From positions 1 to 25,775 of IMG/VR virus record IMGVR_UViG_2609459795_000007: a stretch of DNA of 25,775 nucleotides. One strand, written 5' to 3'. The translations under genes and the position numbers were made by a program. This document shows positions 5,649 to 25,775 of the stretch, piece by piece. Origin of the DNA: a virus (taxonomy: Duplodnaviria; Heunggongvirae; Uroviricota; Caudoviricetes). The notes below the pieces were generated by a model. It saw only the letters and a list, made by a program, of their open reading frames with translations. It did no database searches and was not told the origin of the DNA. How positions within the stretch are numbered: the first letter of the stretch is position 1; each line of letters starts with the position of its first letter.

Positions 5649-5875
5649 TGGCTGATGCAATGGATCTCGTACAGCAGCGCGTTGAAGAAGAACGCCAGCG
5701 TCATATCCGTGCTGCCAGTGCCAAAACGCCGGGCGTGTCCCGCGTGCTTTGCATTGAGTGTGAAGCGCCAATTCCGCCAGCACGCCGCCGTGCCATTCCG
5801 GGTGTGCAGCTTTGCATTACCTGTCAGGAAATCGCAGAGCTGAAAGGCAAACATTACAACGGAGGTGCTGTATGA
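5648..5875 (+). CDS. TraR/DksA-family C4 zinc-finger protein
   Basis: 75-aa ORF with CIEC...(17 aa)...CITC, i.e. CxxC-N17-CxxC spacing typical of TraR/DksA rather than Ogr; translationally coupled to neighbours. Confidence 0.7.
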   Translation: MADAMDLVQQRVEEERQRHIRAASAKTPGVSRVLCIECEAPIPPARRRAIPGVQLCITCQEIAELKGKHYNGGAV

Positions 5876-9292: not shown

Positions 9293-9481
9293 ATGCAGGA
9301 CTATTTTTTGGAGTCTTTGAAGCTCCAGCGCATTGATTTTTTTCTTAAGCTTGTAGCGGCTAGTGAGTGTAGTGATGAAGAGAAGGGGCTGGCTCTGCAG
9401 TGGGTTTCTGAATTGACTGATGAACTCATGGCAAAAATCAGAAGCCACGAATACAACCGCTCAATGGATGTCATCAGCTGA
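9293..9481 (+). CDS. Small SOS-controlled protein, possible Tum antirepressor N-terminal-domain equivalent
   Basis: 62-aa ORF with strong RBS (ATAGGAGGAAAG-ATG); immediately downstream of the LexA box and upstream of the DinI-like ORF. Confidence 0.5.
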   Translation: MQDYFLESLKLQRIDFFLKLVAASECSDEEKGLALQWVSELTDELMAKIRSHEYNRSMDVIS

Positions 9482-9491
9482 GGTGACTTTT

Positions 9492-9725
9492 ATGCGCATT
9501 GAAATAATGATCGATAAAGAGCAGAAGATTAGCCAGTCTACCCTGGACGCCCTTGAATCCGAGCTTTACCGCAATCTGCGCCCCCTGTATCCCAAAACGG
9601 TAATTCGCATTCGCAAAGGTAGCTCTAACGGTGTGGAACTAACCGGACTGCAACTGGATGAAGAAAGAAAACAAGTGATGAAAATTATGCAGAAGGTGTG
9701 GGAGGACGACAGCTGGCTGCATTAA
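9492..9725 (+). CDS. DinI-family protein (DinI-like / Tum C-terminal-domain-like)
   Basis: 77-aa ORF MRIEIMIDKEQKISQSTLDALESELYRNL...VWEDDSWLH matches the DinI family pattern (MRIEV...WE..D.W); ATG 9492 after AGGTGA. Confidence 0.75.
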   Translation: MRIEIMIDKEQKISQSTLDALESELYRNLRPLYPKTVIRIRKGSSNGVELTGLQLDEERKQVMKIMQKVWEDDSWLH

Positions 9726-10743: not shown

Positions 10744-12303
10744 ATGTCTAAAAACGAAATATCTCAGTTAAGAGATGAACAAGTAGATAACTTGATCATT
10801 TTGTGTGATGAAGCTATGAGGGCTACGCCTGAAAATGTCAAGAGATTCATAGAACCCGCGCCTGGCGTTCTTGCTCAATCGAAAGCCAAGCAGCACAGTT
10901 TGATTTTTGGTAGAAGGGGCTCTGGTAAGTCCTCATTGTTGAGGAAGGTAGTTGCAGATCTAACAATAGATAGAAGACCAATTTCTTTTGTTGATATGGA
11001 GACATTTAAAGGTCATTCATACCCTGATGTCCTAATTAGTGTTCTTATTAAAAGCCTACAAGAATTCGAGGTTTGGTTAGAAACTGCTGCATTAACCCCA
11101 GCTACTAAAACTACTTTTTGGAATCGAATTTTTGGTAGAGCGCCGGAAAGGAAACCTTTCAAAAAAAATCCTACAAATGAGCTTGTCCGTGAGCTCAAAG
11201 GCATCATTCAAGATTTAGAAAATAAACTTTTGCAGCCAGAAGAAATTAATGTGCAAAGAAAGGAAACTTCCACAAGAAGTTTTGAAGCTTCTGGTAATGC
11301 TTCCTTGAAGCAAGGTCCAGTAGATGTAGGAGTGGGAGTTAAAAAAGGAAATACAGGTACCAAAGAAATTAGTGAAGGATATAAATCATTAAAAACTGAA
11401 TACTTACATCAAAATATACTTAAGTTTCAAAGGTTTTTTAACAAACTTTCCGAATTGTCTGAAGGGCCGGCATATTTAATACTTGATGATCTATATCATA
11501 TTAGAAGAAGTGATCAGGCTAAAGTTATTGATTATTTTCATAGGGTTGCCAAAGGAAATGGTTTGTGGTTGAAAATTGGTACTATCAAGCATAGAAGTGA
11601 ATGGTATATTCATACAGATCCTCCTACTGGTGTTAAACTTGGTGATGATGCAAAAGAAATAAATATAGATATTTCTTTGGAAAAATTTGCAACTTTAAAA
11701 CAGTTTATGCAAAAAATACTCACTAATCTAATGGTAGAAACGCCGCCTATCACAGTAAATGGACTATTAAATACGACTGCAGTAGATAGGTTGATTATTG
11801 CTTCGGGTGGTGTTACTAGGGACTTTATTGGGATATTTACTAAAGCTATTAACCATGCGAGAGAAAGAGGGCCAGATCATCCTAGAGGTCCTCGAATTGG
11901 TGCAGAAGATGTGAATCTTGCTACTGGTGAATATGGTGATATCAAGCGTGAAGAATTTAAATTAGATGCTGATGATGATCGTATTGCCTTGGAGGAAGCA
12001 TTCACAAAACTTGTGGCATTTTGTTTGAATGATGCAAAATGTAATATTTTTCTAATTAATCAAAAAATGACTGGCCCTGTCAAGGATGCTATTAACCAGT
12101 TAATTGATTTAAGATTAGTGCATTTAGTCCAGTCTCGGGTCACTTTGAAGAAAGGTGCTGATGGCTTAGTTTTTGAGGCATATATGCTGGATACTAGTCA
12201 ATATACAGCATCTAGAAAAGTTCGAGATCTTAATTTGATTGACTTGAATTCCAAGACATTTAGTGAAGAGATACGTAAGAAAAAACTTCTCTATGAAGGT
12301 TGA
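10744..12303 (+). CDS. Orphan P-loop NTPase (AAA+/STAND-like), candidate single-gene defence protein
   Basis: 519-aa ORF, AAGGA RBS; Walker A GRRGSGKSS (aa 57-65); Walker B-like YLILDDLYH about 190 aa downstream; AT-rich; located between cos-like site and portal gene. Confidence 0.75.
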   Translation: MSKNEISQLRDEQVDNLIILCDEAMRATPENVKRFIEPAPGVLAQSKAKQHSLIFGRRGSGKSSLLRKVVADLTIDRRPISFVDMETFKGHSYPDVLISVLIKSLQEFEVWLETAALTPATKTTFWNRIFGRAPERKPFKKNPTNELVRELKGIIQDLENKLLQPEEINVQRKETSTRSFEASGNASLKQGPVDVGVGVKKGNTGTKEISEGYKSLKTEYLHQNILKFQRFFNKLSELSEGPAYLILDDLYHIRRSDQAKVIDYFHRVAKGNGLWLKIGTIKHRSEWYIHTDPPTGVKLGDDAKEINIDISLEKFATLKQFMQKILTNLMVETPPITVNGLLNTTAVDRLIIASGGVTRDFIGIFTKAINHARERGPDHPRGPRIGAEDVNLATGEYGDIKREEFKLDADDDRIALEEAFTKLVAFCLNDAKCNIFLINQKMTGPVKDAINQLIDLRLVHLVQSRVTLKKGADGLVFEAYMLDTSQYTASRKVRDLNLIDLNSKTFSEEIRKKKLLYEG

Positions 12304-13401: not shown

Positions 13402-15167
13402 CAAAAAATCTCCACAATATTGCTGGTATTGGCGGATTCGCCCTGCAGCGGTTCGTTAAACAGTGCGTGCATCGTTGCCCAGGCCAGATCGGCGTGGCTG
13501 GCTTCTTCGCTGCGGCTGGCTTCATAGGTCGGGCGGTTGCCACTGGCGGTGGTGGCGCGACGGATTGCCATAAAGGACTGCGCTATGTCGGTGTGTCCGG
13601 CGTCAAACTCCAGACGGCGGTGGCTGATAATGTCGTAGGCCTTGAGTACCAGGGCGTTTTTAACGTTGGGGTTGTAGACAAACTCCCGGACGGCAGGAAA
13701 AAACGCTTTCACGTTCTCGTAAACCCCGTGACCAACGCCGGTTGAGTCGATACCGATATAGGTCACGTTGTACTGTTCGGTCAGTTTTTTGATGGCGTCA
13801 GCCTGGGCGCGGAAGTCCATTCCGCGCCACTGGTGACGCTCAAGAATGCGGAACTTACCGCCCGGCACGGCTGGCGGCGCCACCACCACGCATCCGGCGC
13901 TGTCGCCGTTCTGCGTACCTTTCGCCGGGTCATATCCGATCCACACTTCGCGCCAGCCAAACGGGCGCAGGGCCAGTGCATGAAAGTCGGTCCAGACTTC
14001 CCAACTGTCCACCATGCACGCCTGCAGCTCGCTGAGTGGGAACACAGACGCGAGATCGTCCACGAACTCACACATCAGCAGGTTCTGGTATTCGTCCGGG
14101 CTGTACTCCATGCGCAACTGGTCGAGGTCGAACAGGTTACAGCCGCTGCGCACCGCATCTTCCACAGTGACTATCTGGCGGTACTGCCCGTCTGCGCACA
14201 GCAGGCCGGGGGCCAGATTGCTGTGGGACAGGTCGATGTCCACCTTATCGGCTTTGTTGCGCCCTCGGTTGAACAGCGCACCGGACCAGAACGGATAAGC
14301 ACTGTGTGTCAGGCTGGATGGCGTGGAAAAATAGGTTTGTCGCCATTTTTTGTGAATAGCCATACCGGAAGCCACTTTGCGCAGTTCTTGGAATTTCGGT
14401 ATCCAGAAATATTCATCCAGATACAGGTTGCCGTGGTAACTCTGGGCCGTGCGGGCATTGGTGCCGAGGAAGTACAGCGTGGCCCCGTTAGGAAGCACCA
14501 TCGGATCGCCTTTCAGCTCCACCTCCACTTCTTTGGCGAAGTCGATGATGTACTGCTTAAAGACGTGGGCCTGAGCCTTGCTGGCGGAAAGGAAAATCTG
14601 GTTACGCCCGGTTAGCAGGGCGTCAATCAGGGCTTCACGGGCAAAATAGAAGGTCGCGCCGATCTGGCGTGACTTCAGCAGGTTGCGGATGCGGTTGGTT
14701 TTTCCGGCTTCCCACCAGTGGCGCTGGTAGTTGAACATGGAGGAATGGAAGATTTCTTCCAGCTTCTCAATCTGTTCATCGGTGAAAACGTTCTTTTCCG
14801 GCTGACGGCGCGGGCCTTTGTTGCGGTTGGCGACGTTAGGGTTTAAGTCGGCTTCGTTGCCGCCATTGTTAAACTTGCCGATCCGCGCATGGCGCTCCGA
14901 CTGGCGCGCCAGCAGGTCAATCTCTTTGAAATCTTTCCCTTCTTTGTGCTCCTTCATAATGAGCTGGCAGTAGCGTGCGGCGGTGGTGAGCTGCATCTGA
15001 TCCAGCGGCCCATAGTCACCCCACTTGTCGCGTTTTTTCCAGCTGTGAACGGTTGCAACTTTCTCGCCCAGCATTTCAGCAATGCGGGCTACGCGGTATC
15101 CCTGAAAGTACAGCAGCATGGCCTGCCGACGGGGATCGAAATCTGCGGGTGTCAGTGTGGTGTTCAT
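13401..15167 (-). CDS. P: Terminase large subunit, ATPase (P2 gpP family)
   Basis: 588-aa ORF; size and position as P2 P; divergent from scaffold gene O. Confidence 0.85.
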   Translation of the reverse strand: MNTTLTPADFDPRRQAMLLYFQGYRVARIAEMLGEKVATVHSWKKRDKWGDYGPLDQMQLTTAARYCQLIMKEHKEGKDFKEIDLLARQSERHARIGKFNNGGNEADLNPNVANRNKGPRRQPEKNVFTDEQIEKLEEIFHSSMFNYQRHWWEAGKTNRIRNLLKSRQIGATFYFAREALIDALLTGRNQIFLSASKAQAHVFKQYIIDFAKEVEVELKGDPMVLPNGATLYFLGTNARTAQSYHGNLYLDEYFWIPKFQELRKVASGMAIHKKWRQTYFSTPSSLTHSAYPFWSGALFNRGRNKADKVDIDLSHSNLAPGLLCADGQYRQIVTVEDAVRSGCNLFDLDQLRMEYSPDEYQNLLMCEFVDDLASVFPLSELQACMVDSWEVWTDFHALALRPFGWREVWIGYDPAKGTQNGDSAGCVVVAPPAVPGGKFRILERHQWRGMDFRAQADAIKKLTEQYNVTYIGIDSTGVGHGVYENVKAFFPAVREFVYNPNVKNALVLKAYDIISHRRLEFDAGHTDIAQSFMAIRRATTASGNRPTYEASRSEEASHADLAWATMHALFNEPLQGESANTSNIVEIF

Positions 15168-15213
15168 GGCACAAACCTACAGCCTTGAATGAAGGCTTTC
15201 CCCGCCTGCGGTT

Positions 15214-15231
15214 TGTGTGGTTGTCGGTACA
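15214..15231. promoter_or_regulatory. Late-promoter activator site TGT-N12-ACA (Ogr/Delta/B type) in the divergent P/O control region
   Basis: tgtgtggttgtcggtaca; dyad centre about 87 bp upstream of the O start codon, compatible with a site centred near -55. Confidence 0.4.
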
Positions 15232-15309
15232 AATACCGCGCATTGTTTCACTGCCCCCATCACCGCAACCATAAGGCTCCAGTAAGTTTTTTCTAACGGA
15301 GCACGGCTC

Positions 15310-16143
15310 ATGACAGTGAAAGCAAAGCGTTTTCGCATCGGGGTGGAAGGTGCCACCACCGACGGACGCGAAATCCAGCGTGAATGGCTGGAACAGATGG
15401 CAGCCAGCTACAACCCGGCGGTGTATACCGCGCTGATTAACCTTGAGCACATCAAGTCTTATCTGCCGGACAGCACCTTTAACCGCTACGGCAAGGTGAC
15501 GGCGCTGTTTGCTGAAGAAATCACGGAAGGTCCGCTGGCAGGCAAGATGGCGCTGTATGCCGACGTTGAGCCAACGGAGTCCCTGGTGGAACTGGTGAAA
15601 AAAGGCCAGAAATTATTCACCTCTATGGAAGTCAGCCCGAAATTCGCTGATACGGGCAAAGCCTATCTGGTCGGCCTGGCTGCCACTGATGACCCTGCCA
15701 GTCTGGGTACGGAAATGCTGACATTCAGCGCCAGTGCAGCCCATAACCCGCTGGCAAACCGCAAGCAGAATCCTGCCAATCTCTTTACCGCTGCAGAGGA
15801 AACGGTGATCGAACTGGAAGAAATCCAGGACGACAAACCGTCCCTGTTTGCCCGCGTCACGGCGCTGTTTACCAAAAAAGAGCAGTCCGATGACGCCCGG
15901 TTCTCTGATGTGCATAAGGCCGTGGAGCTGGTCGCCACTGAGCAGCAGAACCTGAGCGCACGCACCGAAAAATCCCTGTCTGAGCAGGAAGAACGCCTGT
16001 CTGAGCTGGAGACTGCCCTGCAGGCACAGCAAACCGCCTTTAACGAACTGGTGGACAAGCTGAGTCATGAAGACAGTCGCCAGGACTACCGCCAGCGTGC
16101 AACAGGCGGTAACGCCCCCGCTGACACTCTGACCAATTGCTGA
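15310..16143 (+). CDS. O: Capsid scaffolding protein (P2 gpO family)
   Basis: 277-aa ORF with GGAG RBS; coiled-coil-rich C-terminus; order O-N-M. Confidence 0.85.
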   Translation: MTVKAKRFRIGVEGATTDGREIQREWLEQMAASYNPAVYTALINLEHIKSYLPDSTFNRYGKVTALFAEEITEGPLAGKMALYADVEPTESLVELVKKGQKLFTSMEVSPKFADTGKAYLVGLAATDDPASLGTEMLTFSASAAHNPLANRKQNPANLFTAAEETVIELEEIQDDKPSLFARVTALFTKKEQSDDARFSDVHKAVELVATEQQNLSARTEKSLSEQEERLSELETALQAQQTAFNELVDKLSHEDSRQDYRQRATGGNAPADTLTNC

Positions 16144-16159
16144 TGGAGCACAAAACCCG

Positions 16160-17218
16160 ATGAAGAAGAATACCCGCTTTGCTTTTAACGCTTACCTGCA
16201 GCAGCTGGCGCGTCTGAACGGTGTGGCAGTTGAAGAACTGTCCAGCAAGTTCACCGTGGAGCCGTCTGTGCAGCAGACGCTGGAAGACCAGATCCAGCAG
16301 TCCGCCGCTTTCCTGACGTTGATTTACGTCACGCCAGTGACTGAGCAGTCCGGTCAGCTGCTGGGGCTGGGAGTTGGCAGCACCATTGCCGGAACCACTG
16401 ACACCACCGCGAAAGAGCGTGAACCTGTCGATCCGACGCTGATGGTCGATGTGGAATATAAATGCGAGCAGACCAACTTTGACACGGTGCTGACCTACGC
16501 GAAGCTGGACCTGTGGGCGAAGTTTCAGGATTTCCAAGTGCGCATCCGTGACGCCATCGTGAAACGTCAGGCTCTGGACCGCATCATGATCGGCTTTAAC
16601 GGCGTGAAGCGTGCGAAAACCTCCAACCGTAGTGAAAACCCGCTACTGCAGGATGTGAACAAAGGCTGGCTGCAGAAAATCCGTGAGGATGCACCGGATC
16701 ACGTCATGGGCAGCACCACCACGGGCGGTGAAACCACACCGGGCGCAGTGAAAGTCGGGAAAGGTGGCGAATATGCCAACCTGGACGCCGTGGTGATGGA
16801 TGCCGTCAATGAGCTTATCGACGTGGTCTACCAGGACGATGACGATCTGGTAGTGATTTGCGGTCGTGAGCTGTTGTCTGACAAGTATTTCCCGCTGGTC
16901 AACAAAGAGCAGGAAAACAGTGAAAAACTGGCTGCCGATATGATCATCAGTCAGAAACGCATGGGTGGCCTGCAGGCGGTGCGTGCGCCGTTCTTCCCGC
17001 CGAATGCGCTGCTGATCACCCGTCTGGATAACCTGTCCATCTACTGGCAGGAAGACACCCGCCGCCGTTCAGTTATCGACAACCCGAAACGTGACCGGAT
17101 TGAAAACTTTGAATCCGTTAACGAAGCCTATGTGGTTGAGGACTACCGCTGCGCTGCACTGGTGGAAAACATTCAGATTGGCGATTTTAGCGCCGCCGCA
17201 GCAGAAACCGGAGCGTAA
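16160..17218 (+). CDS. N: Major capsid protein (P2 gpN family)
   Basis: 352-aa ORF; size and position as P2 N. Confidence 0.9.
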   Translation: MKKNTRFAFNAYLQQLARLNGVAVEELSSKFTVEPSVQQTLEDQIQQSAAFLTLIYVTPVTEQSGQLLGLGVGSTIAGTTDTTAKEREPVDPTLMVDVEYKCEQTNFDTVLTYAKLDLWAKFQDFQVRIRDAIVKRQALDRIMIGFNGVKRAKTSNRSENPLLQDVNKGWLQKIREDAPDHVMGSTTTGGETTPGAVKVGKGGEYANLDAVVMDAVNELIDVVYQDDDDLVVICGRELLSDKYFPLVNKEQENSEKLAADMIISQKRMGGLQAVRAPFFPPNALLITRLDNLSIYWQEDTRRRSVIDNPKRDRIENFESVNEAYVVEDYRCAALVENIQIGDFSAAAAETGA

Positions 17219-17221
17219 TCC

Positions 17222-17872
17222 ATGAGCCTGAGTCCCGCACGGCAGCATCGCCTGCGCGTTCAGGCTGAACAGGCCGCCCGCGAGGGCGGCAGTGTTCGCC
17301 ACGCGTCGGGCTATGACCTGATGCTGCTGCAACTGGCGGAAGACCGCCGTCGTCTCAAGGGCGTTCAGTCCACGGTCAAAAAAGCGGAAATCAAAGTGGA
17401 GCTGCTGCCGAAGTACGCCGCCTGGGCGGAGGGTGTCCTGGCTGCCGGAGGCGCTCAACAGGATGACGTGCTGATGTACGTGATGCTGTGGCGCATTGAT
17501 GCCGGAGATTATGCCGGGGCGCTGGAGATCGGGCGTCATGCCCTGCGTCATGGCTGGGTTATGCCGCTGGGTAACCGCAACGTGCAGACCGTGCTGGCAG
17601 AGGAAATGGCAGACGCTGCGCAGAGTGCAATGCTTGCCGCCACCGGCTTTGATGTCGATCTGTTGCTACAGACGCTGGAGCTGACAGACGGTCTGGATAT
17701 GCCGGACCAGTCACGGGCGCGTCTGCATAAAGCGATTGGCGCTGTCCTGAGTGAAACTAATCCGGCTTCCGCCCTTAATCATCTCAACCATGCGTTACAG
17801 CTCGATCCCCGCTGTGGCGTGAAAAAAGACAAACAGCAGCTGGAGCGCAGACTGCGCAATGACAGCCGCTGA
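17222..17872 (+). CDS. M: Terminase small (endonuclease) subunit (P2 gpM family)
   Basis: 216-aa ORF immediately after N with GGAG RBS. Confidence 0.8.
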   Translation: MSLSPARQHRLRVQAEQAAREGGSVRHASGYDLMLLQLAEDRRRLKGVQSTVKKAEIKVELLPKYAAWAEGVLAAGGAQQDDVLMYVMLWRIDAGDYAGALEIGRHALRHGWVMPLGNRNVQTVLAEEMADAAQSAMLAATGFDVDLLLQTLELTDGLDMPDQSRARLHKAIGAVLSETNPASALNHLNHALQLDPRCGVKKDKQQLERRLRNDSR

Positions 17873-17967
17873 CAGAACGTGCCCCCGCGCACGGGCGGCA
17901 CGGGGTGGCGAAAGGTACTGCCACATCAAAACCCCGTCCACCGCCCTTTATTTCAGGAGAAAGCAGC

Positions 17968-18432
17968 ATGAAGTTTGTTGCGCCAGAACAGGCACCGGAA
18001 CAGGCAGAAATCATCAGAAATACGCCTTTCTGGCCTGATGTGGACCTGTCGGAGTTTCGCAGTGTCATGCGCACTGACGGCACGGTGACGCAGCCGCGTT
18101 TAAAGCAGGTTGCGCTGTCGGCAATTTCGGAGGTCAACGCAGAGCTGTATGAGTTTCGCAGACGCCAGCAGATGCTGGGATATGCGTCGCTGGCAGAGGT
18201 TCCGGCGGAACAGCTGGACGGGAAAAGTGAGCGCATTCAGCACTATTTCAACGCGGTTTACTGCTGGGCACGCGCCATGCTCAACGAACGATACCAGGAC
18301 TATGACGCCACGGCATCCGGTGTGAAGCGAGGCGAGGAACTGGCAGAAGCCAGCGGTGATTTGTGGCGTGACGCCCGCTGGGCCATCAGCCGGGTACAGG
18401 ATGCGCCGCACTGCACAGTGGAGCTTATCTGA
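17968..18432 (+). CDS. L: Head completion/stabilisation protein (P2 gpL family)
   Basis: ATG 17968 with AGGAG RBS (the ORF-track start at 17905 is an upstream alternative codon); stop overlaps X start. Confidence 0.8.
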   Translation: MKFVAPEQAPEQAEIIRNTPFWPDVDLSEFRSVMRTDGTVTQPRLKQVALSAISEVNAELYEFRRRQQMLGYASLAEVPAEQLDGKSERIQHYFNAVYCWARAMLNERYQDYDATASGVKRGEELAEASGDLWRDARWAISRVQDAPHCTVELI

Positions 18433-18635
18433 TGAAAGTGCGTGCGCATCAGTATGACACGGTGGACGCGCTTTGCTGGCGTCATTACGGGCGCACGCAG
18501 GGTGTCACGGAGCAGGTACTGAAGGCAAATCCGGGGCTTGCCGAATACGGCCCCTTTTTACCTCACGGGCTGCAGGTGGAGCTGCCGGACATTCCGACTA
18601 CCACCACCGTGCAGACCGTCCAGCTATGGGACTGA
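18432..18635 (+). CDS. X: Tail protein X (P2 gpX family)
   Basis: 67-aa ORF MKVRAHQYDTVDALCWRHYGRTQGV...ANPGLAEYGPFLPHG..., same length and pattern as P2 X. Confidence 0.85.
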   Translation: MKVRAHQYDTVDALCWRHYGRTQGVTEQVLKANPGLAEYGPFLPHGLQVELPDIPTTTTVQTVQLWD

Positions 18636-18638
18636 ATT

Positions 18639-18854
18639 ATGACGCTTGAGCGAATCAGCGCCTTTATCACGTATTGCATCGCCGTCGTGCTGGCCTGGCT
18701 GGGCGATTTGTCCATCAAGGATGCCTCAACGCTGGGCGGCCTGATGATCGGTGTGCTGATGCTGGCTATCAACTGGTACTACAAACACAAAGCCTACCAG
18801 CTTCTGCGCGACGGGCAGATCTCGCGGGAGGACTATGAATCCATCAATCGTTAA
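18639..18854 (+). CDS. Holin (two predicted transmembrane helices)
   Basis: 71-aa ORF with two hydrophobic segments and charged C-terminus, directly upstream of endolysin. Confidence 0.7.
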   Translation: MTLERISAFITYCIAVVLAWLGDLSIKDASTLGGLMIGVLMLAINWYYKHKAYQLLRDGQISREDYESINR

Positions 18855-19347
18855 ACGCTGCCTTATCGGGGCCGTGCTGGCTGTTGCTGCCACGCTGCCG
18901 GGTTTTCAGCAGCTTCACACCTCCGTGGAGGGGGTGAAACTGATTGCCGATTACGAAGGCTGTCGTCTGCAGCCGTATCAGTGCAGCGCGGGTGTCTGGA
19001 CCGACGGCATTGGTAATACATCAGGTGTCATTCCAGGAAAAAACATTACGGAACGACAGGCAGCGGAAGGGCTGATCTCCAACGTGCTACGTGTGGAGCG
19101 GGCGCTGGAAAGGTGTGTGAAGCAACAGCCGCCGCAAAAGGTGTATGACTCGGTGGTGTCGTTTGCCTTCAACGTGGGAACGGGCAATGCCTGCAGTTCC
19201 ACGCTGGTGAAATTGCTCAACCAGCGGCGCTGGGCGGATGCGTGCCGACAGTTGCCGCGCTGGGTGTATGTAAAAGGTGTGTTTAATCAGGGGCTGGATA
19301 ACCGCCGTGCGCGGGAGATGGCCTGGTGTTTACAGGGAGCAAACTGA
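18835..19347 (+). CDS. Endolysin, lysozyme-like, with N-terminal signal-anchor-release (SAR)-type hydrophobic segment
   Basis: 170-aa ORF; N-terminal hydrophobic LIGAVLAVAATL; lysozyme-family conserved region ...YEGCRLQPYQCSAGVWTDGIGNT... Confidence 0.8.
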   Translation: MNPSIVKRCLIGAVLAVAATLPGFQQLHTSVEGVKLIADYEGCRLQPYQCSAGVWTDGIGNTSGVIPGKNITERQAAEGLISNVLRVERALERCVKQQPPQKVYDSVVSFAFNVGTGNACSSTLVKLLNQRRWADACRQLPRWVYVKGVFNQGLDNRRAREMAWCLQGAN

Positions 19348-19348
19348 A

Positions 19349-19726
19349 ATGAAAAAGAAATTAATCAGCGGACTGTTTCTGATGTTATGGATGGCGCTGT
19401 TAATCGCAGCAATGGTGTATCCGCAGGGGATTTTTCCGGTACTGGCAGCGTCCGGCGTTTGGGTAGCCTGTTTGCTGACATGGGCGGTAATTCCGGTAGC
19501 ACTGGCTGCGTTAATTAAGAATGGCCCGCTCTGGCAGGAGTTAAGGGCATCTTTGCTGAAGACAATTACCCGAAAAGAAAACGTATTTATCAGTTGGGTG
19601 ATGCGATTGCTGATTGTCGTAAGTCTCGCCTGGACGGGGTGGGCTATTACCCTGGTCTTTTATCTGCTGACCGTTATTGCCTTCTGGATCACCCGTAATC
19701 AGATGGCGCAACAGGTAGCAGCATGA
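19349..19726 (+). CDS. lysA: LysA-like integral membrane protein (lysis accessory)
   Basis: 125-aa ORF from ATG 19349 with multiple hydrophobic helices; position after endolysin as P2 lysA. Confidence 0.6.
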   Translation: MKKKLISGLFLMLWMALLIAAMVYPQGIFPVLAASGVWVACLLTWAVIPVALAALIKNGPLWQELRASLLKTITRKENVFISWVMRLLIVVSLAWTGWAITLVFYLLTVIAFWITRNQMAQQVAA

Positions 19727-20151
19727 ACCGGTTGCTGCTGGTTGTGCTGGCGTTATTACTGGCGGCGCTGGGCTGGCAGACGTGGCGGCTGGCTGATGCC
19801 AGCCAGACCATTAGCACGCAGGCAGACGAGCTGCAGAGCAAAAGTCAGGCACTGGCAAAGAGCAACAGCCAGCTTATTAGCCTGTCCATTCTGACTGAAA
19901 CCAATAACCGGGAGCAGGCGCGGCTCTATGCCGAAGCAGAACAGACCAGCGCGCTGCTGAGACAACGACAACACCGGATCGAGAAACTGAAACGTGAGAA
20001 CGAGGATTTACGCCGCTGGGCTGATACTCCTTTGCCTGCTGACATTATCCGGCTGCGGGAACGTCCGGCACTCACCGGAGGTGCAGCTTACCGTCAGTGG
20101 TTGTCCGCGAGTGACGCCGTGTCGGCTGGATCAGGCAGCGCCGCGCACTAA
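19723..20151 (+). CDS. lysB: LysB, Rz-like inner-membrane spanin
   Basis: 142-aa ORF with N-terminal TM helix then coiled-coil; start overlaps lysA stop (ATGA). Confidence 0.7.
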   Translation: MNRLLLVVLALLLAALGWQTWRLADASQTISTQADELQSKSQALAKSNSQLISLSILTETNNREQARLYAEAEQTSALLRQRQHRIEKLKRENEDLRRWADTPLPADIIRLRERPALTGGAAYRQWLSASDAVSAGSGSAAH

Positions 20152-20281
20152 CGGTGATCTGAACGCGTTGCTGGATGAAACGGAGGCCGCCTGGGCGGTC
20201 TGTGCAGACAAAGTGGACATGATTATTGCGTGTCAGGAGCGAAACAGTGAACAAACCACAATCCCTGCGCCACGCCCTTAA
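19994..20281 (+). CDS. lysC: LysC, Rz1-like outer-membrane lipoprotein spanin (embedded/overlapping)
   Basis: Alternative-frame ORF starting within lysB; lipobox LTLSGC; Pro-rich C-terminus; start codon uncertain (GTG 19994). Confidence 0.5.
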   Translation: MRTRIYAAGLILLCLLTLSGCGNVRHSPEVQLTVSGCPRVTPCRLDQAAPRTNGDLNALLDETEAAWAVCADKVDMIIACQERNSEQTTIPAPRP

Positions 20282-20678
20282 TAAAGCAGTGCCTTATGTC
20301 CGTAATAACCCGGACAAACTGCATCTGTTTGTGGATAACGGTTCGCTGGTTGCCACGGGGGCCAGCTCCATGTCATGGGAGTACCGCTACACCCTGAACG
20401 TGGTGATTGAGGATTTCAGCGGCGACCAGAATTTGCTGATGGCCCCGGTTTTGCTGTGGCTGCGGGATAACCAGCCCGATGCCATGAATAACCCGGCGTT
20501 ACGGGAAAAGCTATTCACCTTTGAGGTGGATATTCTGCGCAACGATGTCTGTGATATCAGCCTCAACCTGCAACTGACGGAGCGTGTGCTGGTCAGCACT
20601 GACGGCAGTGTGTCGAGTGTTGAAGCGGTAGCGGAACCCGATGAACCTGAAGAAATGTGGACGGTGAAACGTGGCTGA
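20247..20678 (+). CDS. R: Tail completion protein R (P2 gpR family)
   Basis: GTG 20247 with AGGAG RBS 7 nt upstream; KPQSLRHALNKAV...LHLFVDNGSL... resembles P2 R. Confidence 0.75.
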   Translation: MNKPQSLRHALNKAVPYVRNNPDKLHLFVDNGSLVATGASSMSWEYRYTLNVVIEDFSGDQNLLMAPVLLWLRDNQPDAMNNPALREKLFTFEVDILRNDVCDISLNLQLTERVLVSTDGSVSSVEAVAEPDEPEEMWTVKRG

Positions 20679-21117
20679 ACTGCAGAAGGTGGACGACTGG
20701 CTGAGTGCCTTGCTGGCGAATCTTGAACCAGCCGCAAGAAGCCACATGATGCGCCAGCTGGCGCAGGAGCTGCGCCGGACACAGCAGCAGAATATCAGGA
20801 TGCAACGCAACCCTGACGGCAGCAGTTATGAACCGCGACGGGTAACAGCACGCAGTAAAAAGGGGCGCATCAAACGTCAGATGTTTGCAAAGCTGCGCAC
20901 CACAAAATACCTGAAAACTGCCGCCAGCGCCGACTCTGCCAGCGTGCAGTTTGAAGGCAAGGTACAGCGCATTGCCCGTGTTCATCACTACGGCTTACGT
21001 GATCGCGTCAGCCGCAAAGGACCGGAGGTCCGTTACGCAGAGCGTCGCCTTCTGGGTGTAAATGATGATGTTGAGGCAATGACCCGCGACATGATTCTGC
21101 AATGGCTGGCGGGGTGA
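20671..21117 (+). CDS. S: Tail completion protein S (P2 gpS family)
   Basis: 148-aa ORF overlapping R stop; start codon (GTG 20671) uncertain. Confidence 0.7.
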   Translation: MAELQKVDDWLSALLANLEPAARSHMMRQLAQELRRTQQQNIRMQRNPDGSSYEPRRVTARSKKGRIKRQMFAKLRTTKYLKTAASADSASVQFEGKVQRIARVHHYGLRDRVSRKGPEVRYAERRLLGVNDDVEAMTRDMILQWLAG

Positions 21118-21121
21118 TTTT

Positions 21122-21139
21122 TGTATCAGCACTGATACA
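21122..21139. promoter_or_regulatory. Late-promoter activator site TGT-N12-ACA upstream of V (extended perfect palindrome)
   Basis: ttgtatcagcactgatacaa: TGT-atcagcactgat-ACA inside a 9-bp-arm inverted repeat; between S stop and V start. Confidence 0.4.
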
Positions 21140-21185
21140 AGTTGCAGCACTGCCGCCTTTCTTCCCCTGATGGCAACCTTTCCCT

Positions 21186-21764
21186 ATGAACGCACAATTA
21201 ACCGAAATCATGCGCCTTATCACCAACCTGATCCGCACTGGGGTAGTCACCGAAGTGGACAGGACAAACTGGCTTTGCCGGGTGAAAACGGGCGACCTTG
21301 AAACTAACTGGATTAACTGGCTGACGCTGCGCGCGGGTAATGCCCGCACATGGTGGAAACCATCAGAAGGTGAGCAGGTGGTGCTGCTGAGTCTGGGCGG
21401 CAATCTGGAGACTGCCTTTGCGCTGCCCGCTGTCTATTCGAATCAGTTCGCACCACCGTCGACGTCGGCGGACGCCTGCGTGACAGAACATCCTGACGGT
21501 GGCTGGTTTGAATACGAACCCGCCACCGGGCGCTGGTATGTCAGGGGCATCAAATCAATGGTCATTGAGGCCGCTGATAACATCACCATGAAAACCAGTG
21601 AGTTTGTACTGGAGGCTGACCGCACGCGCATTAACAGCGAAGTGGTGATCAATGGTGGCGTTACCCAGGGCGGCGGAGCGATGAGTTCTAACGGGATCGT
21701 GGTTGATGCGCATCAGCATACTGGCGTCCTGAAAGGCGGCGATACAACCGGAGGCCCGGTATGA
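21186..21764 (+). CDS. V: Baseplate spike/assembly protein V (P2 gpV family)
   Basis: 192-aa ORF; N-terminus MNAQLTEIMRLITNLIRTG... parallels P2 V. Confidence 0.85.
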   Translation: MNAQLTEIMRLITNLIRTGVVTEVDRTNWLCRVKTGDLETNWINWLTLRAGNARTWWKPSEGEQVVLLSLGGNLETAFALPAVYSNQFAPPSTSADACVTEHPDGGWFEYEPATGRWYVRGIKSMVIEAADNITMKTSEFVLEADRTRINSEVVINGGVTQGGGAMSSNGIVVDAHQHTGVLKGGDTTGGPV

Positions 21765-22120
21765 CGCTTTATAGCGGGATGAACAATACCAGCGGCAAAG
21801 TCATTACTGATATTGACCATCTGCGCCAGTCGGTGCGGGACATTCTGCTGACGCCGCAGGGTAGCCGCATTGCTCGCCGTGAATATGGTTCCCTGCTGTC
21901 GGCACTGATAGACCAGCCACAAAATCCGGCGTTACGCCTGCAGGTCATGTCGGCAGTGTATGTGGCGCTGAGTCGCTGGGAGCCACGGCTGACGCTGGAT
22001 TCCATCACCATTAACAGCAATTTTGACGGTTCAATGGTGGTGGGACTGACCGGGCGGCGTAATAACGGTGTGCCTGTTTCCCTTTCCGTATCAACAGGAG
22101 CAGAGAATGGCAGTGATTGA
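21761..22120 (+). CDS. W: Baseplate protein W (GPW/gp25 family)
   Basis: 119-aa ORF with GGAG RBS; overlaps V stop and J start. Confidence 0.85.
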   Translation: MTLYSGMNNTSGKVITDIDHLRQSVRDILLTPQGSRIARREYGSLLSALIDQPQNPALRLQVMSAVYVALSRWEPRLTLDSITINSNFDGSMVVGLTGRRNNGVPVSLSVSTGAENGSD

Positions 22121-23015
22121 CCTTTCGCAGTTGCCTGCGCCGCAGATTGTCGATGTGCCGGACTTTGAGACGTTGCTTGCCGAACGCAAGGCCGAATTTG
22201 TTGCGCTTCATCCGAAAGATGAGCAGGAAGCCGTGATCCGCACGCTGGAACTGGAATCTGAACCCGTCACCAAATTGCTGCAGGAGAACGCTTACCGTGA
22301 GTTGCTTCTGCGCCAGCGCATTAACGAAGCCGCGCAGGCGGTGATGGTGGCTTACGCGATGGGCGGCGATCTTGACCAGCTCGCTGCCAACTACAACGTG
22401 AAACGCCTGACGGTGACGCCTGCTGATAATGACGCTGTGCCGCCCGTTGCGGCTGTGATGGAAAGCGATGAAGCGTTACGCCTGCGTGTGCCTGCAGCCT
22501 TTGAAGGGCTTTCAGTTGCGGGGCCAACTGCAGCCTATGAATTTCATGCCCGAAGCGCCGACGGTCGGGTGGCGGATGCCAGTGCAACCAGTCCGGCACC
22601 TGCAGAGGTGGTACTGACTGTCCTTAGCCGTGAAGGCGACGGAACAGCAGAAAAAGACCTGCTGGATGTGGTGGAAAAAGCCCTGAACAGTGAGAACGTC
22701 CGCCCGGTGGCTGACCGTTTGACGGTTCGCAGCGCAGAAATCATCCCGTATCGCGTGGAAGCCACCATTTTTCTCTATCCGGGACCGGAAGCAGAGCCGG
22801 TAATGGCAGCGGCAAAAGCCAGCCTGCAGAAGTACATCGCCAGTCAGACGCGTCTTGGTCGGGATATTCGCCGTAGCGCCATCTTTGCCGCCTTGCATGT
22901 TGAGGGTGTGCAGCGTGTGGAGCTGGCTTCTCCTCTGGCGGATGTGGTCCTGAACAAAACACAGGCGGCATCATGTACGCAGTGGAGCGTAACCAACGGA
23001 GGAACGGATGAATAG
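22107..23015 (+). CDS. J: Baseplate protein J (P2 gpJ family)
   Basis: 302-aa ORF from ATG 22107 (AGGAGCAGAGA-ATG), same length as P2 J. Confidence 0.85.
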   Translation: MAVIDLSQLPAPQIVDVPDFETLLAERKAEFVALHPKDEQEAVIRTLELESEPVTKLLQENAYRELLLRQRINEAAQAVMVAYAMGGDLDQLAANYNVKRLTVTPADNDAVPPVAAVMESDEALRLRVPAAFEGLSVAGPTAAYEFHARSADGRVADASATSPAPAEVVLTVLSREGDGTAEKDLLDVVEKALNSENVRPVADRLTVRSAEIIPYRVEATIFLYPGPEAEPVMAAAKASLQKYIASQTRLGRDIRRSAIFAALHVEGVQRVELASPLADVVLNKTQAASCTQWSVTNGGTDE

Positions 23016-23613
23016 TCTGCTGCCACCGGGTTCAACACCACTGGAGCGCCGACTGGCGCAAACCTGCAGCGGGATTTCTGATCTGCAGGTGCCGCTTCGT
23101 GACTTGTGGAATCCGGCAACCTGTCCGGTCAGTTTCCTGCCTTATCTCGCCTGGGCGTTCTCTGTGGATCGCTGGGACGAGGACTGGACAGAAAGTGTCA
23201 AGCGCCAGGTGGTGAAGGATGCTTTTTATATTCATCAGCATAAAGGGACCACCAGTGCCGTGCGGCGGGTGGTGGAGCCGTTCGGCTTTCTGATCCGCAT
23301 TATTGAGTGGTGGCAGACCGGAGAGACACCGGGCACGTTTCGTCTGGATATCGGCGTGCAGGACCAGGGCATCACTGAAGATACCTATCTGGAACTTGAG
23401 CGACTGATAAGCGATGCCAAACCATGCAGCCGTCACATGATCGGCATGTCCATCAACCTGCAGACCAGCGGCCCGCATTGGGTGGGAGCCGCCAGCTATC
23501 TTGGCGAAGAAATCACGATCTATCCGTATATCAACGAAACAATTATTTCCGGTGGCACCGCGCATGAAGGCGGGGCGGTCCATGTTATTGACACAATGAG
23601 AGTGAATCCATGA
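23008..23613 (+). CDS. I: Baseplate/tail protein I (P2 gpI family)
   Basis: 201-aa ORF with GGAGGAACGG-ATG; order J-I-H. Confidence 0.8.
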   Translation: MNSLLPPGSTPLERRLAQTCSGISDLQVPLRDLWNPATCPVSFLPYLAWAFSVDRWDEDWTESVKRQVVKDAFYIHQHKGTTSAVRRVVEPFGFLIRIIEWWQTGETPGTFRLDIGVQDQGITEDTYLELERLISDAKPCSRHMIGMSINLQTSGPHWVGAASYLGEEITIYPYINETIISGGTAHEGGAVHVIDTMRVNP

Positions 23614-25112
23614 GCACAAAATTTTATACCCTGCTGACGGATATTGGCGCGGCGAAACTTGCCAGCGCCGCCGCGCTCGGTGTGCCTTTAAAAATTACCC
23701 ATATGGCGGTCGGCGATGGCGGCGGAGTATTGCCAACGCCGGATGCAAAGCAGACTGCACTGGTGAATGAGAAACGCCGGGCTGCGCTGAATATGCTCTA
23801 TATCGACCCGCAGAACAGTAGCCAGATTATTGCTGAACAGGTAATCCCTGAAAATGAGGGCGGTTGGTGGATACGTGAAGTGGGCCTGTTTGATGAGTCC
23901 GGGGCATTGATTGCCGTGGGAAACTGCCCGGAAAGCTATAAGCCGCAACTGGCTGAAGGCAGTGGGCGTACCCAGACCGTGCGCATGGTGCTGATTACCA
24001 GCAGCACGGACAATATCACCCTGAAAATCGACCCTGCCGTCGTGCTGGCAACCCGCAAGTATGTGGATGACAAGGTACTGGAGCTGAAGGTGTTCGTGGA
24101 TGATAAGATGGCAAAACATCTTGCCGCACCGGACCCGCATTCACAGTATGCACCCAAAGAAAGCCCGACATTGACCGGAACACCCAAAGCGCCAACGCCA
24201 GCGGAGGGGAATAACACCACGCAGATTGCGACCACCGCGTTTGTTCAGGCGGCACTGATGGCCCTTATTAATGGTGCGCCAGCCACACTGGATACGCTGA
24301 AAGAAATTGCCGCTGCCATTAATAATGACCCGAAATTCAGTACCACCATTAACAATGCGCTGGCACTGAAAGCGCCGCTGTTAAGTCCGGCATTCACCGG
24401 AACGCCAACAGCCCCCACTGCCGCACAGTCGGTTAACAATACACAGATTGCCACCACGGCTTTTGTGAAATCGGCAATTGCGGCAATGGTGGGGTCTGCA
24501 CCTGCTGCACTGGATACACTGAACGAACTGGCTGCGGCGCTGGGGAATGACCCGAACTTTGCCACGACAATGCTTAATGCGCTGGCAGGTAAACAACCGT
24601 TGGACAATACGCTGACTAATTTGAGTGGAAAGGATGTAGCTGGTCTTCTCGCATACCTTGGTTTGGGAGAAGCGGCAAAACGGAATGTGGGCAACGGGGA
24701 AAACCAAATCCCTGATATGTCTTTCTGGACGGTTACTGGTGGCAATGGAAATTTTGTGATTCGTCAACCTGACGGGCTAATCATTCAGATGGTTACTGTA
24801 AGTATAAGCGGTCCAGTGGCGATGAATGGAATGACTGATAATGCTTATGCCATTACAGGTTCTAATAAGTCTTATATTGCCACAGCCACATTGCCCTTTG
24901 TATTTCCTAATAAGGTGCTGGGCGTTATCCCTCTGGTATCAACAACAGCTTATGGTGGTGTATCCAGTAATATTACAGGTTCATACGCGACGGCGGTTTG
25001 TTCTTTTGCCGCTGTCAGGGGGAATAATACGATTGTGTTCAAAGTCGACAAACCACTGAATGCAGCCTTTCCTTCAGATACCAGCGTCTCAGCGTTAATC
25101 ATTGGACGGTAA
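23610..25112 (+). CDS. H: Tail fibre protein H, with conserved N-terminal part and AT-richer C-terminal receptor-binding region
   Basis: 500-aa ORF; N-terminus MSTKFYTLLTDIGAAKLA... typical of P2-family H; internal fibre repeats; composition shifts after about 24650. Confidence 0.85.
   Translation: MSTKFYTLLTDIGAAKLASAAALGVPLKITHMAVGDGGGVLPTPDAKQTALVNEKRRAALNMLYIDPQNSSQIIAEQVIPENEGGWWIREVGLFDESGALIAVGNCPESYKPQLAEGSGRTQTVRMVLITSSTDNITLKIDPAVVLATRKYVDDKVLELKVFVDDKMAKHLAAPDPHSQYAPKESPTLTGTPKAPTPAEGNNTTQIATTAFVQAALMALINGAPATLDTLKEIAAAINNDPKFSTTINNALALKAPLLSPAFTGTPTAPTAAQSVNNTQIATTAFVKSAIAAMVGSAPAALDTLNELAAALGNDPNFATTMLNALAGKQPLDNTLTNLSGKDVAGLLAYLGLGEAAKRNVGNGENQIPDMSFWTVTGGNGNFVIRQPDGLIIQMVTVSISGPVAMNGMTDNAYAITGSNKSYIATATLPFVFPNKVLGVIPLVSTTAYGGVSSNITGSYATAVCSFAAVRGNNTIVFKVDKPLNAAFPSDTSVSALIIGR
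24162..24599 (+). repeat. Tandem duplication (two diverged units of about 72 codons) inside H
   Basis: Unit 1 ...SPTLTGTPKAPTPAEGNNTTQIATTAFVQAA...DTLKEIAAAINNDPKF... and unit 2 ...SPAFTGTPTAPTAAQSVNNTQIATTAFVKSA...DTLNELAAALGNDPNF... Confidence 0.6.
24646..24671. other. Candidate crossover site for a Gin/Cin/Pin/Hin-family serine DNA invertase
   Basis: TTCTCGCATACCTTGGTTTGGGAGAA: 26-bp imperfect palindrome with TTCTC...GAGAA ends and ACC..GGT core, resembling gix/cix/hix sites; lies at the constant/variable junction of H. Confidence 0.45.
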
Positions 25113-25114
25113 GA

Positions 25115-25558
25115 ATGAACTCAGTATTCTTTTCACCCGGAAGTAAAAGTTTTTATCTGCAAGAATTGTTTCCAGAATATGAGGATGCGGGAACGCTTCC
25201 AGATGATGTTATTGAAATTACCAGAGAAACATATGAGCAATTTCTTGGGCTGCATCCAGAAGGGAAAGAAATTGGCGCTGACAGTTCAGGACGGCCAATA
25301 TGGATTAATTCCCCGCCGCCTTCAAAAGAGGATGAGGTGCTGGCGGCTGAAATGAAAAAAATATCTTTGGTTTCAGAAGTCAATACCTACATCAATACCC
25401 ATCAGTGGCCTGGCAAAGCTGCTATTGGTCGTCTGAAAGGTGACGAGCTGGAACAATATAATTTATGGCTGGATTATCTGGACGCACTGGAACTGGTTGA
25501 TACCTCCAGTGCTCCAGATATTGAATGGCCTACGCCTCCGGTAGTTCAGGCCAGATGA
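25115..25558 (+). CDS. G: Tail fibre assembly protein (P2 gpG / Mu U family)
   Basis: 147-aa ORF directly after H; C-terminal conserved ...LWLDYLDALELVDTSSAPDIEWPTPP. Confidence 0.8.
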   Translation: MNSVFFSPGSKSFYLQELFPEYEDAGTLPDDVIEITRETYEQFLGLHPEGKEIGADSSGRPIWINSPPPSKEDEVLAAEMKKISLVSEVNTYINTHQWPGKAAIGRLKGDELEQYNLWLDYLDALELVDTSSAPDIEWPTPPVVQAR

Positions 25559-25775
25559 CATCCGGCGCGGTGCTGATATCTGTTGCAGTCACCGCGTCAA
25601 TGTAATCCAGCACAGCGTTAAGCCGGGTTGTTTCTGCCTGCGTCAGCTTCCGCCCGGCCTGCAATTTCAGCTGAATCAGACTAATGGAAGCCATAGCCGC
25701 ATCAATCAGTGACTGGCGCCGTACTTCTGCCGCGTCTACTGCGGCGTTATGCTGTGCCTCAGTGTCGGTCACCCA
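25530..25775 (-). CDS. Second tail fibre assembly protein in inverted orientation (3' part only; gene start lies beyond the window end)
   Basis: Minus-strand ORF ending ...AVLDYIDAVTATDISTAPDVIWPELPEA, paralogous to the G C-terminus; convergent with and overlapping G by 29 bp. Confidence 0.6.
   Translation of the reverse strand, partial: WVTDTEAQHNAAVDAAEVRRQSLIDAAMASISLIQLKLQAGRKLTQAETTRLNAVLDYIDAVTATDISTAPDVIWPELPEA

Follow-up and report, generated by a model that had tools for sequence, protein, structure and literature searches.

What does it mean when a tail-fibre gene changes its base composition in mid-gene and is then followed by two assembly genes that face each other, right where the available DNA ends? 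This question is raised by the right end of the window, i.e., the whole stretch of DNA analyzed here, which comprises 25,775 nucleotides (positions 1 to 25,775) of the Caudoviricetes record IMGVR_UViG_2609459795_000007 from IMG/VR. A first-pass annotation made from the sequence alone had proposed a tail-fibre switch of the Gin/Cin/Pin type at this point. Cassettes in related genomes, which exist in both orientations, support that proposal, and we conclude that the window very probably ends within a Pin/Cin/Gin-type invertible host-range cassette at the H-G / Z-fun tail-fibre locus of a P2-like prophage.

The right edge of the window is the end of draft contig JNPX01000033.1 (assembly GCA_000703945.1; 100% identity, same last base), of which the window constitutes the final 25.8 kb. 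The contig end falls 246 nt into the second of the two assembly genes, tfa-B, and because the contig stops inside the cassette, the remainder of the latter is unreadable in this assembly. Repeated and possibly mixed-orientation sequence is a likely reason for the break in the draft assembly at this very place. By its gene order and its hallmark families, the prophage is P2-like (Peduoviridae-type): int is followed by genes for a CI-type repressor, the GPA replication protein, portal, terminase, GPO, the P2 capsid protein and L, and then by X, holin, lysozyme, R, S, V, W, J, I and H. In one close relative, L003, the sheath, tube, E, T, U, D and ogr genes come next, and the prophage is apparently intact from int to ogr. 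Shortly upstream of the baseplate gene V, the window contains a TGT-N12-ACA dyad that, judging from what is known about P2 late promoters, we take to be an Ogr-dependent late promoter element, likely driving V-W-J-I-H-tfa. The features on which the following argument is built are these:

21124..21141, plus strand: TGT-N12-ACA dyad, about 45 nt 5' of the ATG of baseplate gene V, read directly as TGTATCAGCACTGATACA; likely late promoter element.
23610..24657, plus strand: constant part of H (Hc), outside the putative invertible segment; PF12571 Phage_tail_fib N-terminal domain, E 6.9e-65.
24646..24671, plus strand: putative left crossover site, pix/cix-like, 26 bp, TTCTCGCATACCTTGGTTTGGGAGAA; within H, central TT at 24658-24659.
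24658..25112, plus strand: variable H C-terminus in the present orientation (Hv-A), about 150 aa, AT-richer, at the drop in G+C.
24658..25775, no strand assigned: in-window part of the putative invertible segment, the rest of which was placed from relatives.
25115..25558, plus strand: tfa-A, G-like tail-fibre assembly chaperone for Hv-A, 147 aa; PF02413 Caudo_TAP, E 4e-28.
25530..25775, minus strand: 3' part of tfa-B, a tfaE-like second chaperone (C-terminal 81 aa); PF02413 positions 53-131, E 1.1e-20.

The open reading frame of H (23610-25112) encodes 500 amino acids, and its homology among many isolated P2-like phages stops at query positions 1048-1063, equivalent to positions 24657-24672 of the window. 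This is at the 26-bp sequence, which codes for ..LLAYLGLGE.. of H and is the sole match in the window both to TTCTCGCATACCTTGGTTTGGGAGAA and to the degenerate pattern TTCTCNNAAACCNNGGTTTNNGAGAA (up to 3 mismatches; 0 matches in 100 shuffles). Its two half-sites of 12 bp each flank the central TT and agree at 10 of 12 positions, and 21 of its 26 positions are identical in P1 cixR, for which the crossover is annotated at the same centre in the P1 record. When determined in 200-nt windows, G+C is 0.52-0.58 on the 5' side of the site, falls to 0.415-0.46 over 24600-25499 and returns to 0.52-0.55 in the inverted gene. Thus, the imperfect palindrome at a drop in composition and the AT-richer H C-terminus, both noted in the first-pass annotation, are indeed there. 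Hv-A bears a weak match to a Gp53-like C-terminal domain (PF21882, E 3.9e-5) that just misses the cut-off (24.5 bits against 24.9 bits). Tandem Repeats Finder detected no DNA-level repeat in H; the H protein does show a duplicated motif.

The tail-fibre assembly gene G and the inverted paralogue that leaves the window on the minus strand had likewise been recognized correctly. The two genes, tfa-A and tfa-B, are convergent and overlap by 29 nt. Their products are distant paralogues with 33% identity over 81 aa, as calculated with the full-length copy of tfa-B from L003; full-length tfa-B (200 aa) is present in L001, L002, L003 and L005.

What should follow beyond the edge was read from the three relatives that were analyzed in full, namely L001 and L002, which share 98-100% identity with the window over the variable part (99.5-100% for Hv-A), and L003, the H protein of which is identical. 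In all three, the rest of tfa-B on the minus strand is followed by a promoterless fibre C-terminus, also on the minus strand, by a second 26-bp site and by a gene for an invertase of 188 aa. The inverted second site, the inverted alternative H C-terminus and the serine invertase, all anticipated on the basis of the window, are in fact present in every close relative that reaches that far. The orphan inverted tip belongs to the Collar family (PF07484, E 1.2e-15). The right site reads TTCTCCCAAACCAACGTTTATGAAAA in L001 and L002 and ...TTTAAGAAAA in L003, and its central AA on the plus strand becomes TT upon inversion, in agreement with the central dinucleotide of the left site. A search of the relatives that allowed up to 5 mismatches yielded exactly two sites, inverted with respect to each other, per complete locus; a shufflon with a third site, as in one EPEC prophage, was discarded on the same grounds. 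The complete segment comprises 1947 nt in L001 and 1986 nt in L003. The 188-aa invertase, which occurs in L001, L002, L003, L006 and phage KP12, combines PF00239 (E 2.6e-53) with PF02796 (E 1.4e-15), aligns with Gin of Mu from end to end (PDB 3uj3 and 4m6f, E 4e-92 and 1e-90) and conserves Ser9. A plus-strand scan upstream of the L003 invertase gene revealed no sigma-70-like promoter, a result that is uninformative either way. By homology to L001 and L002, the right site and the invertase gene should also be present in the genome studied here and would be expected about 816-841 nt and about 897-1463 nt beyond the edge, respectively.

Both orientations of the cassette exist in nature, as is evident from comparisons between complete genomes. 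Flipping the segment in silico resulted in an intact H' of 519 aa for L003 and 506 aa for L001, directly followed by the 200-aa chaperone. This very layout, H' and then a 200-aa chaperone, is the natural, annotated one in L006. Between L003 and L006, the flanks are collinear (99.4% and 97.3% identity), the middle is inverted (99.9%) and the breakpoints fall inside both 26-bp sites. Furthermore, the flipped L003 model matches the sequence of E. coli 20A24 with 100.0% identity over 2273 nt, and the flipped L001-type cassette was found as a single uninterrupted stretch in at least 13 genomes with 97.6-99.4% identity. A census of junctions retrieved Hc joined to the present tip (tip A) in 28 genomes and Hc joined to a Collar tip in 460, though no orientation ratio can be derived from the latter count, given that fibres outside such a cassette may also have a Collar-type tip after the same Hc.

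The contig is read only to position 25775 and terminates inside the cassette, and cryptic elements such as e14 hold decayed versions (K-12 stfE, for instance, is annotated as a pseudogene); this would suit a genome that has a lost or inactive invertase gene or right site, so that only the present H tip is made. We consider this quite improbable, given that both sites and an intact invertase are retained in the close relatives analyzed in full, that a recombinase gene is annotated at the locus in 40 of 40 collinear relatives among the matches listed, and that the visible part is free of frameshifts. Moreover, such segments can be acted upon in trans by another invertase of the Pin family from the same cell, as e14 is by PinQ (PMC12529663).

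The window is also a mosaic, since Hc is 100% identical to L003 and 94-96% identical to L001 and L002, and the variable part is 99.5-100% identical to the latter two. Together with the end of H homology at the site and the occurrence of the same cassette next to pinE in e14-like elements, this might be taken to mean that the 26-bp sequence marks a boundary for the horizontal swapping of tips and serves no reversible switching here. Such swapping is compatible with switching and does not exclude it, and collinear flanks enclose identical cassettes in either orientation, the invertase always adjoins and both sites retain the matching central dinucleotide required for inversion. An explanation by exchange only is therefore, in our view, extremely unlikely.

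For the homologous P segment of e14, which belongs to the same cassette family, inversion by PinQ has been reported to affect StfE2 in such a way that the lysogen expresses a fibre-derived protein that blocks the adsorption of other phages (PMC12529663), and the cassette at hand could in principle serve host defence likewise, with no bearing on the phage's own host range. Here, Hc is part of a complete P2-type late operon that carries the TGT-N12-ACA late-promoter motif. Operons of this type are known to be silent in lysogens and, as L003 has an apparently intact prophage from int to ogr, a function in the virion is the simpler reading; we give a role in defence hardly any credence. Inversion could also do without any site-specific system and proceed by general homologous recombination, with the oppositely oriented chaperone paralogues or some other inverted repeats as substrates, but this has a negligible chance of being correct. 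The paralogues do exist, yet their protein identity is only 33% over 81 aa, and an inversion by this route was rejected since the L003/L006 breakpoints lie at the 26-bp sites, outside the chaperone genes.

A separate observation concerns the mobility of the cassette. In NZ_CP046000.1, the same cassette (about 98% identical) is found both in a P2-like prophage and beside pinE of an e14-like element. One might imagine the cassette as a portable unit that is moved among unrelated prophage families by the invertase acting at the 26-bp sites, its copies flipping one another in trans. The double cassette of NZ_CP046000.1, the shift in identity at the site and the stop of P2-like homology at the same position would all fit. 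Ordinary homologous recombination in conserved flanks also accounts for these data, and modular fibre exchange is an old idea. We regard the portable unit as a rather doubtful possibility.

Returning to the reversible tail-fibre switch as the preferred explanation, we propose that it operates as follows. The 26-bp site would split H into a constant N-terminal part outside the segment, probably transcribed as part of the V-W-J-I-H late operon, and a variable C-terminal tip inside it. The segment itself would consist of two convergent modules, in each of which a fibre tip is paired with its own assembly chaperone. The serine invertase, predicted to be encoded just past the inverted second site, would cleave each of the two sites at its central TT/AA dinucleotide, and strand exchange would flip the segment of about 1.95 kb. 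In the present orientation, H should end in the short Gp53-like tip, co-expressed with the 147-aa chaperone. After inversion, H would be fused in frame (..LGLGE joined to GSALPVG..) to the Collar-domain tip, followed by the 200-aa tfaE-like chaperone. With one tip made per orientation, a lysogen population would therefore release two types of virions that differ in receptor specificity, and inversion would be expected to change the host range. Inversion may depend on Fis and an enhancer in cis. A stretch homologous to the P1 enhancer (nt 19-90 of cin) is identical at 55-56 of 72 positions, which says little about function because it lies within the coding sequence of a protein that is itself 77-79% identical.

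A switch of this kind would explain the compositional shift in the middle of H, the two opposed chaperone genes and, past the window edge in the relatives, the orphan fibre-tip ORFs that carry the label "hypothetical" or "phage tail protein". It would add one further case of host-range bet-hedging in phages. For those who use such loci for tailocin or host-range engineering, it would mean that the locus encodes two receptor-binding tips and expresses one or the other according to the orientation of the segment. Beyond correct annotation, the significance is small: tail-fibre switches of this type are ordinary and already described, and inversion is known in P2-like prophages. In those of EPEC E2348/69, tail-fibre inversion with coexisting orientations was shown by sequencing and PCR (Goldberg et al. 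2014, PMC4272514), and invertases with inverted neighbours have been reported for the P2 Z/fun hotspot (bioRxiv 10.1101/2024.10.15.618418; for the Fels-2 invertase, see PMC7953296). These cases agree with ours in phage family, locus and the combination of an invertase with inverted repeats that provides alternative fibre C-termini. One EPEC locus differs in that it has three repeats and hence four variants, whereas the relatives of the window have exactly two sites.

The P segment of e14 with PinE from E. coli K-12 shares the arrangement of a constant part with its tip, tfa, an inverted tfaE, an inverted orphan tip (stfE) and a pin gene that points outward. The left sites agree at 23 of 26 positions, the right sites of e14 and L001 are identical, the invertase of the relatives shares 83% identity with PinE, and RefSeq names the inverted chaperone of the relatives tfaE. 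On the other hand, e14 is a defective prophage, whereas the cassette described here resides in an apparently complete P2-like myovirus prophage; its constant part is P2 H (PF12571) instead of the e14 fibre, and tip A and its chaperone are unrelated in DNA to stfP/tfaP of K-12 except for the site and the 3' end of tfa. The C segment of P1 resembles our locus in its invertase (77-79% identity to Cin), in its cix sites (18-21 of 26 positions identical, central TT/AA crossover) and in the layout of the constant part of S, alternative tips and U/U' chaperones. It differs in length (4.2 kb versus about 1.95 kb) and in the position of cin, which lies on the opposite side and reads toward the segment with the enhancer at nt 19-90, whereas the invertase gene here reads away from it. 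The G segment of Mu, about 3 kb in size, likewise alternates between S/U and S'/U', and its invertase gene lies downstream of it. Gin is homologous to the invertase of our relatives from end to end, including the catalytic Ser9 and a C-terminal HTH; the tips encoded here differ from those of Mu in being short (about 150-165 aa), and one of them is Gp53-like instead of Collar-type.

An invertible tail-fibre switch at the right end of the window, as proposed by the first-pass annotation, is supported by the composition of the locus, by its continuation in relatives and by the occurrence of the same cassette in two orientations. The proposal had been built on a 26-bp imperfect palindrome inside the tail-fibre gene H at a drop in composition, a tail-fibre assembly gene behind H and an inverted assembly paralogue running off the edge on the minus strand, and all three are present:

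24646-24671, within H (23610-25112): 26-bp site TTCTCGCATACCTTGGTTTGGGAGAA
25115-25558, plus strand: first chaperone (assembly) gene, Caudo_TAP, E 4e-28
25775 down to 25530, minus strand: second chaperone gene, C-terminal 81 residues, Caudo_TAP, E 1.1e-20

The 26-mer as well as the pattern TTCTCNNAAACCNNGGTTTNNGAGAA gave a single match in the window when up to 3 mismatches were allowed and none in 100 shuffles. Its half-sites are alike at 10 of 12 positions and enclose a central TT. The G+C content is 0.52-0.58 before the site, falls to 0.415-0.46 at about 24600-25500 and recovers in the inverted gene. With 33% identity over 81 residues, the chaperones are distant paralogues, and their convergent genes overlap by 29 nt at the 3' ends (25530-25558), an overlap that is kept in all relatives and in e14 of Escherichia coli K-12 (tfaP/tfaE). 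Translation of the constant part of H revealed a duplicated protein motif of about 60 residues per copy (..NNTTQIATTAFVQAAL..LDTLKEIAAAINNDPKF.. and ..VNNTQIATTAFVKSAI..LDTLNELAAALGNDPNF..; residues ~200-330, window ~24200-24600), for which Tandem Repeats Finder detected no repeat at the DNA level.

When the H protein was used as an exact-match look-up query, three contigs were retrieved. The window's own contig, JNPX01000033.1 (GCA_000703945.1, 56,668 nt), shares window positions 13610-25775 (12,166 nt) at 100% identity and terminates exactly where the window does, after 246 nt of the inverted chaperone gene; the window makes up its final 25,775 nt. A draft contig thus ends at the right edge, and rightward extension is impossible within this assembly. 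The break is probably due to a repeated or mixed-orientation cassette, and repetition within the genome would be a plausible cause (compare strain 1916D18 with two copies). In that strain (NZ_CP046000.1, also the source of the relative L002), a second cassette copy resides at 3690322-3692450 beside an annotated pinE gene. Between left site and invertase, inclusive, the copies share ~98% identity, one lying in a P2-like prophage and the other being pinE-linked, so that a single strain harbors two copies in different prophage types; similar pinE-linked copies occur in other genomes, too.

We searched complete E. coli genomes with the sequence from the start of H to the window end (2,166 nt). At least 80% of this query was covered in one place in 25 genomes, with full cover as one collinear piece in 22 of them and identities of up to 97.5%. 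Three of the relatives' loci reaching past the edge were read further: L001 and L002, in which the variable part of the window is 98.2-100% identical, and L003, which encodes an identical H protein. In all three, the inverted chaperone gene is completed (603 nt; RefSeq name tfaE). Next come an inverted orphan ORF of 169-182 residues, which matches the Phage Tail Collar domain (E 1.2e-15), another 26-bp site, a gene for a 188-aa protein with Resolvase and HTH_7 domains and the sheath gene FI. Thus, the inverted second site, the inverted alternative H C-terminus and the serine invertase that had been predicted beyond the edge were found in these relatives, and a recombinase gene is annotated in 40 of the 40 listed genomes whose H-to-invertase region is collinear with that of L003. 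The right site (TTCTCCCAAACCAACGTTTATGAAAA in L001 and L002, TTCTCCCAAACCAACGTTTAAGAAAA in L003) corresponds to the left one in inverted orientation: their inner halves are the same (GGTTTGGGAGAA, reading inward) and their outer halves are not, and the central dinucleotides, TT in the left site and AA in the right one, match after inversion. Each complete locus contains exactly two such sites when up to 5 mismatches are allowed. Since the assembly ends inside the cassette, the second site and the invertase of the window genome are predicted from relatives; on the L001/L002 model they should lie ~816-841 nt and ~897-1463 nt past the edge, respectively. Between window positions 23610-25775 and these loci, identity is mosaic, with the 26-bp site as the switch point: in the constant part of H it is 100% to L003 and 94-96% to L001 and L002; in the present tip and both chaperone genes it is 98.2-100% to L001 and L002 and 92-99% to L003.

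The stretch of L003 enclosed by the two central dinucleotides was then inverted in silico. H stayed open, encoding 519 residues with the junction ..LLAYLGLGE|GSALPVGVPVPWPSATPPTGW.., and a 200-aa chaperone begins at its stop codon. Across both junctions, 2,273 nt of this model match E. coli 20A24 (NZ_CP147044.1) in one piece at 100.0%. The RefSeq annotation of this locus is as predicted by the flip: the plus strand carries a 1,560-nt fibre gene and a 603-nt chaperone gene, and the minus strand a 444-nt chaperone gene and an orphan tip, followed by a recombinase. Alignment of L003 with the 20A24 locus (L006) yields three blocks: collinear left and right flanks (99.4% and 97.3%) and a middle block (L003 11049-13037) that is inverted and 99.9% identical, the block ends overlapping within the two 26-bp sites. 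Flipping of the L001-type cassette, the one closest to the window, gave a 506-aa H', and this model is matched across both junctions in at least 13 genomes (97.6-99.4%). Therefore, the same cassette occurs naturally in either orientation, with an exchange point within the 15-nt stretch TTGGTTTGGGAGAAG common to the sites. The expectation that both orientations would be found thus holds as an observation between genomes.

The cassette belongs to a P2-like prophage of canonical gene order (ORF map and Pfam matches in the window). After the integrase follow a CI-type repressor, the GPA replication protein, portal, terminase, scaffold, capsid and lysis genes and, onward, R, S, V, W, J, I, H and the tail-fibre assembly gene. 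Two further features are:

1-1056, minus strand: integrase (ORF map and Pfam)
21124-21141: TGT-N12-ACA dyad just upstream of V, read from the sequence

We take the dyad to be an Ogr-dependent P2 late promoter, from which the constant part of H would be transcribed together with V, W, J and I. The tip-and-chaperone module facing the constant part would be expressed, the other one lacking both a promoter and an N-terminus. Flipping of the segment by the invertase at low frequency would consequently give two virion types from one lysogen population. The present tip (~150 residues) has a weak Gp53-like C-terminal match just under the Pfam cut-off (E 3.9e-5), and the alternative tip is of the Collar-domain type. 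By analogy with Mu, P1 and related systems, we infer a change in host range. A role in blocking adsorption, reported for the e14 P segment, whose inversion by PinQ leads to a protein that blocks T2 adsorption (2025, PMC12529663), is a minor rival to a host-range function because H here is part of a complete late operon.

Several accessory genes were noticed in the prophage. Flanked by the integrase and CI repressor genes, a 662-aa AAA_15/OLD-type ATPase (1127-3115, minus strand) matches AriA (E 3.6e-23), Old (E 2e-17) and, more weakly, GajA/PtuA in PADLOC; it may be cargo of a P2-like hotspot that serves in anti-phage defence. A 519-aa protein (10744-12303, plus strand) is encoded in the tin/old cargo position, immediately ahead of the portal gene; its N-terminus weakly resembles ORC/CDC6-like AAA ATPases (E 6.5e-10), and PADLOC gave a faint match to mad8. 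Accessory genes are also present in the early region: a D12-class (Dam-type) adenine methyltransferase gene (5812-6729, plus strand) immediately precedes replication gene A, and a DinI-like gene (9420-9725, plus strand) lies downstream of A. The gap between S and V (21118-21185) is empty in the window and holds an inverted cargo gene in relatives (an 852-nt hypothetical gene, L001 3648-4499; a DUF6216 gene, L006 1734-2540); it is a further variable hotspot.

The recombinase and its sites closely resemble established systems. Residues 1-184 of the relatives' invertase align with two crystal-structure sequences of Gin from Mu (E 4e-92 and 1e-90), with Ser9 and the C-terminal HTH conserved; identity is 78.6% (tblastn) or 77% (global alignment) to Cin of P1 and 83% (156/188) to PinE of K-12 e14. 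The P1 record annotates cixL, cixR and the crossover points, and when centred on the latter, cixR and the window site share 21 of 26 positions, including the central TT. The enhancer annotated in P1 (cin nt 19-90) has a counterpart in the invertase genes (55-56 of 72 positions identical); this stretch is coding sequence, so that its enhancer function is putative. The P2-like Klebsiella phage KP12 (OM835953.1, region 1507-3059) has the same two sites and an annotated DNA invertase that is 98.9% identical. Its fibre gene is annotated in two pieces, 1507-2775 and a hypothetical ORF of 243 nt, as would result from a frameshift or an error in sequencing, and its taxonomy line, Vequintavirinae, is at odds with the P2-like gene content. 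K-12 e14 exhibits the same gene order (stfP, tfaP, inverted tfaE, inverted stfE, pinE) with the sites CTCTCGAAAACCTTGGTTTGGGAGAA, which shares 23 of 26 positions with that of the window, and TTCTCCCAAACCAACGTTTATGAAAA, which is also the right site in L001. Coexisting orientations have been described for e14 and for two P2-like prophages of EPEC E2348/69, one with a simple two-variant locus and one with a three-repeat shufflon, and were confirmed by PCR for e14 and the shufflon locus (Goldberg et al. 2014, PMC4272514). The Z/fun hotspot of P2 often contains a DNA invertase and inverted adjacent genes (2024 preprint on hyper-variability hotspots), a programmed inversion is likely in Fels-2 (PMC7953296), and the gene families enriched at such inversions include tail-fibre and tail-fibre-assembly genes (Milman et al. 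2023). The system is of a long-known kind, already described for P2-like prophages.
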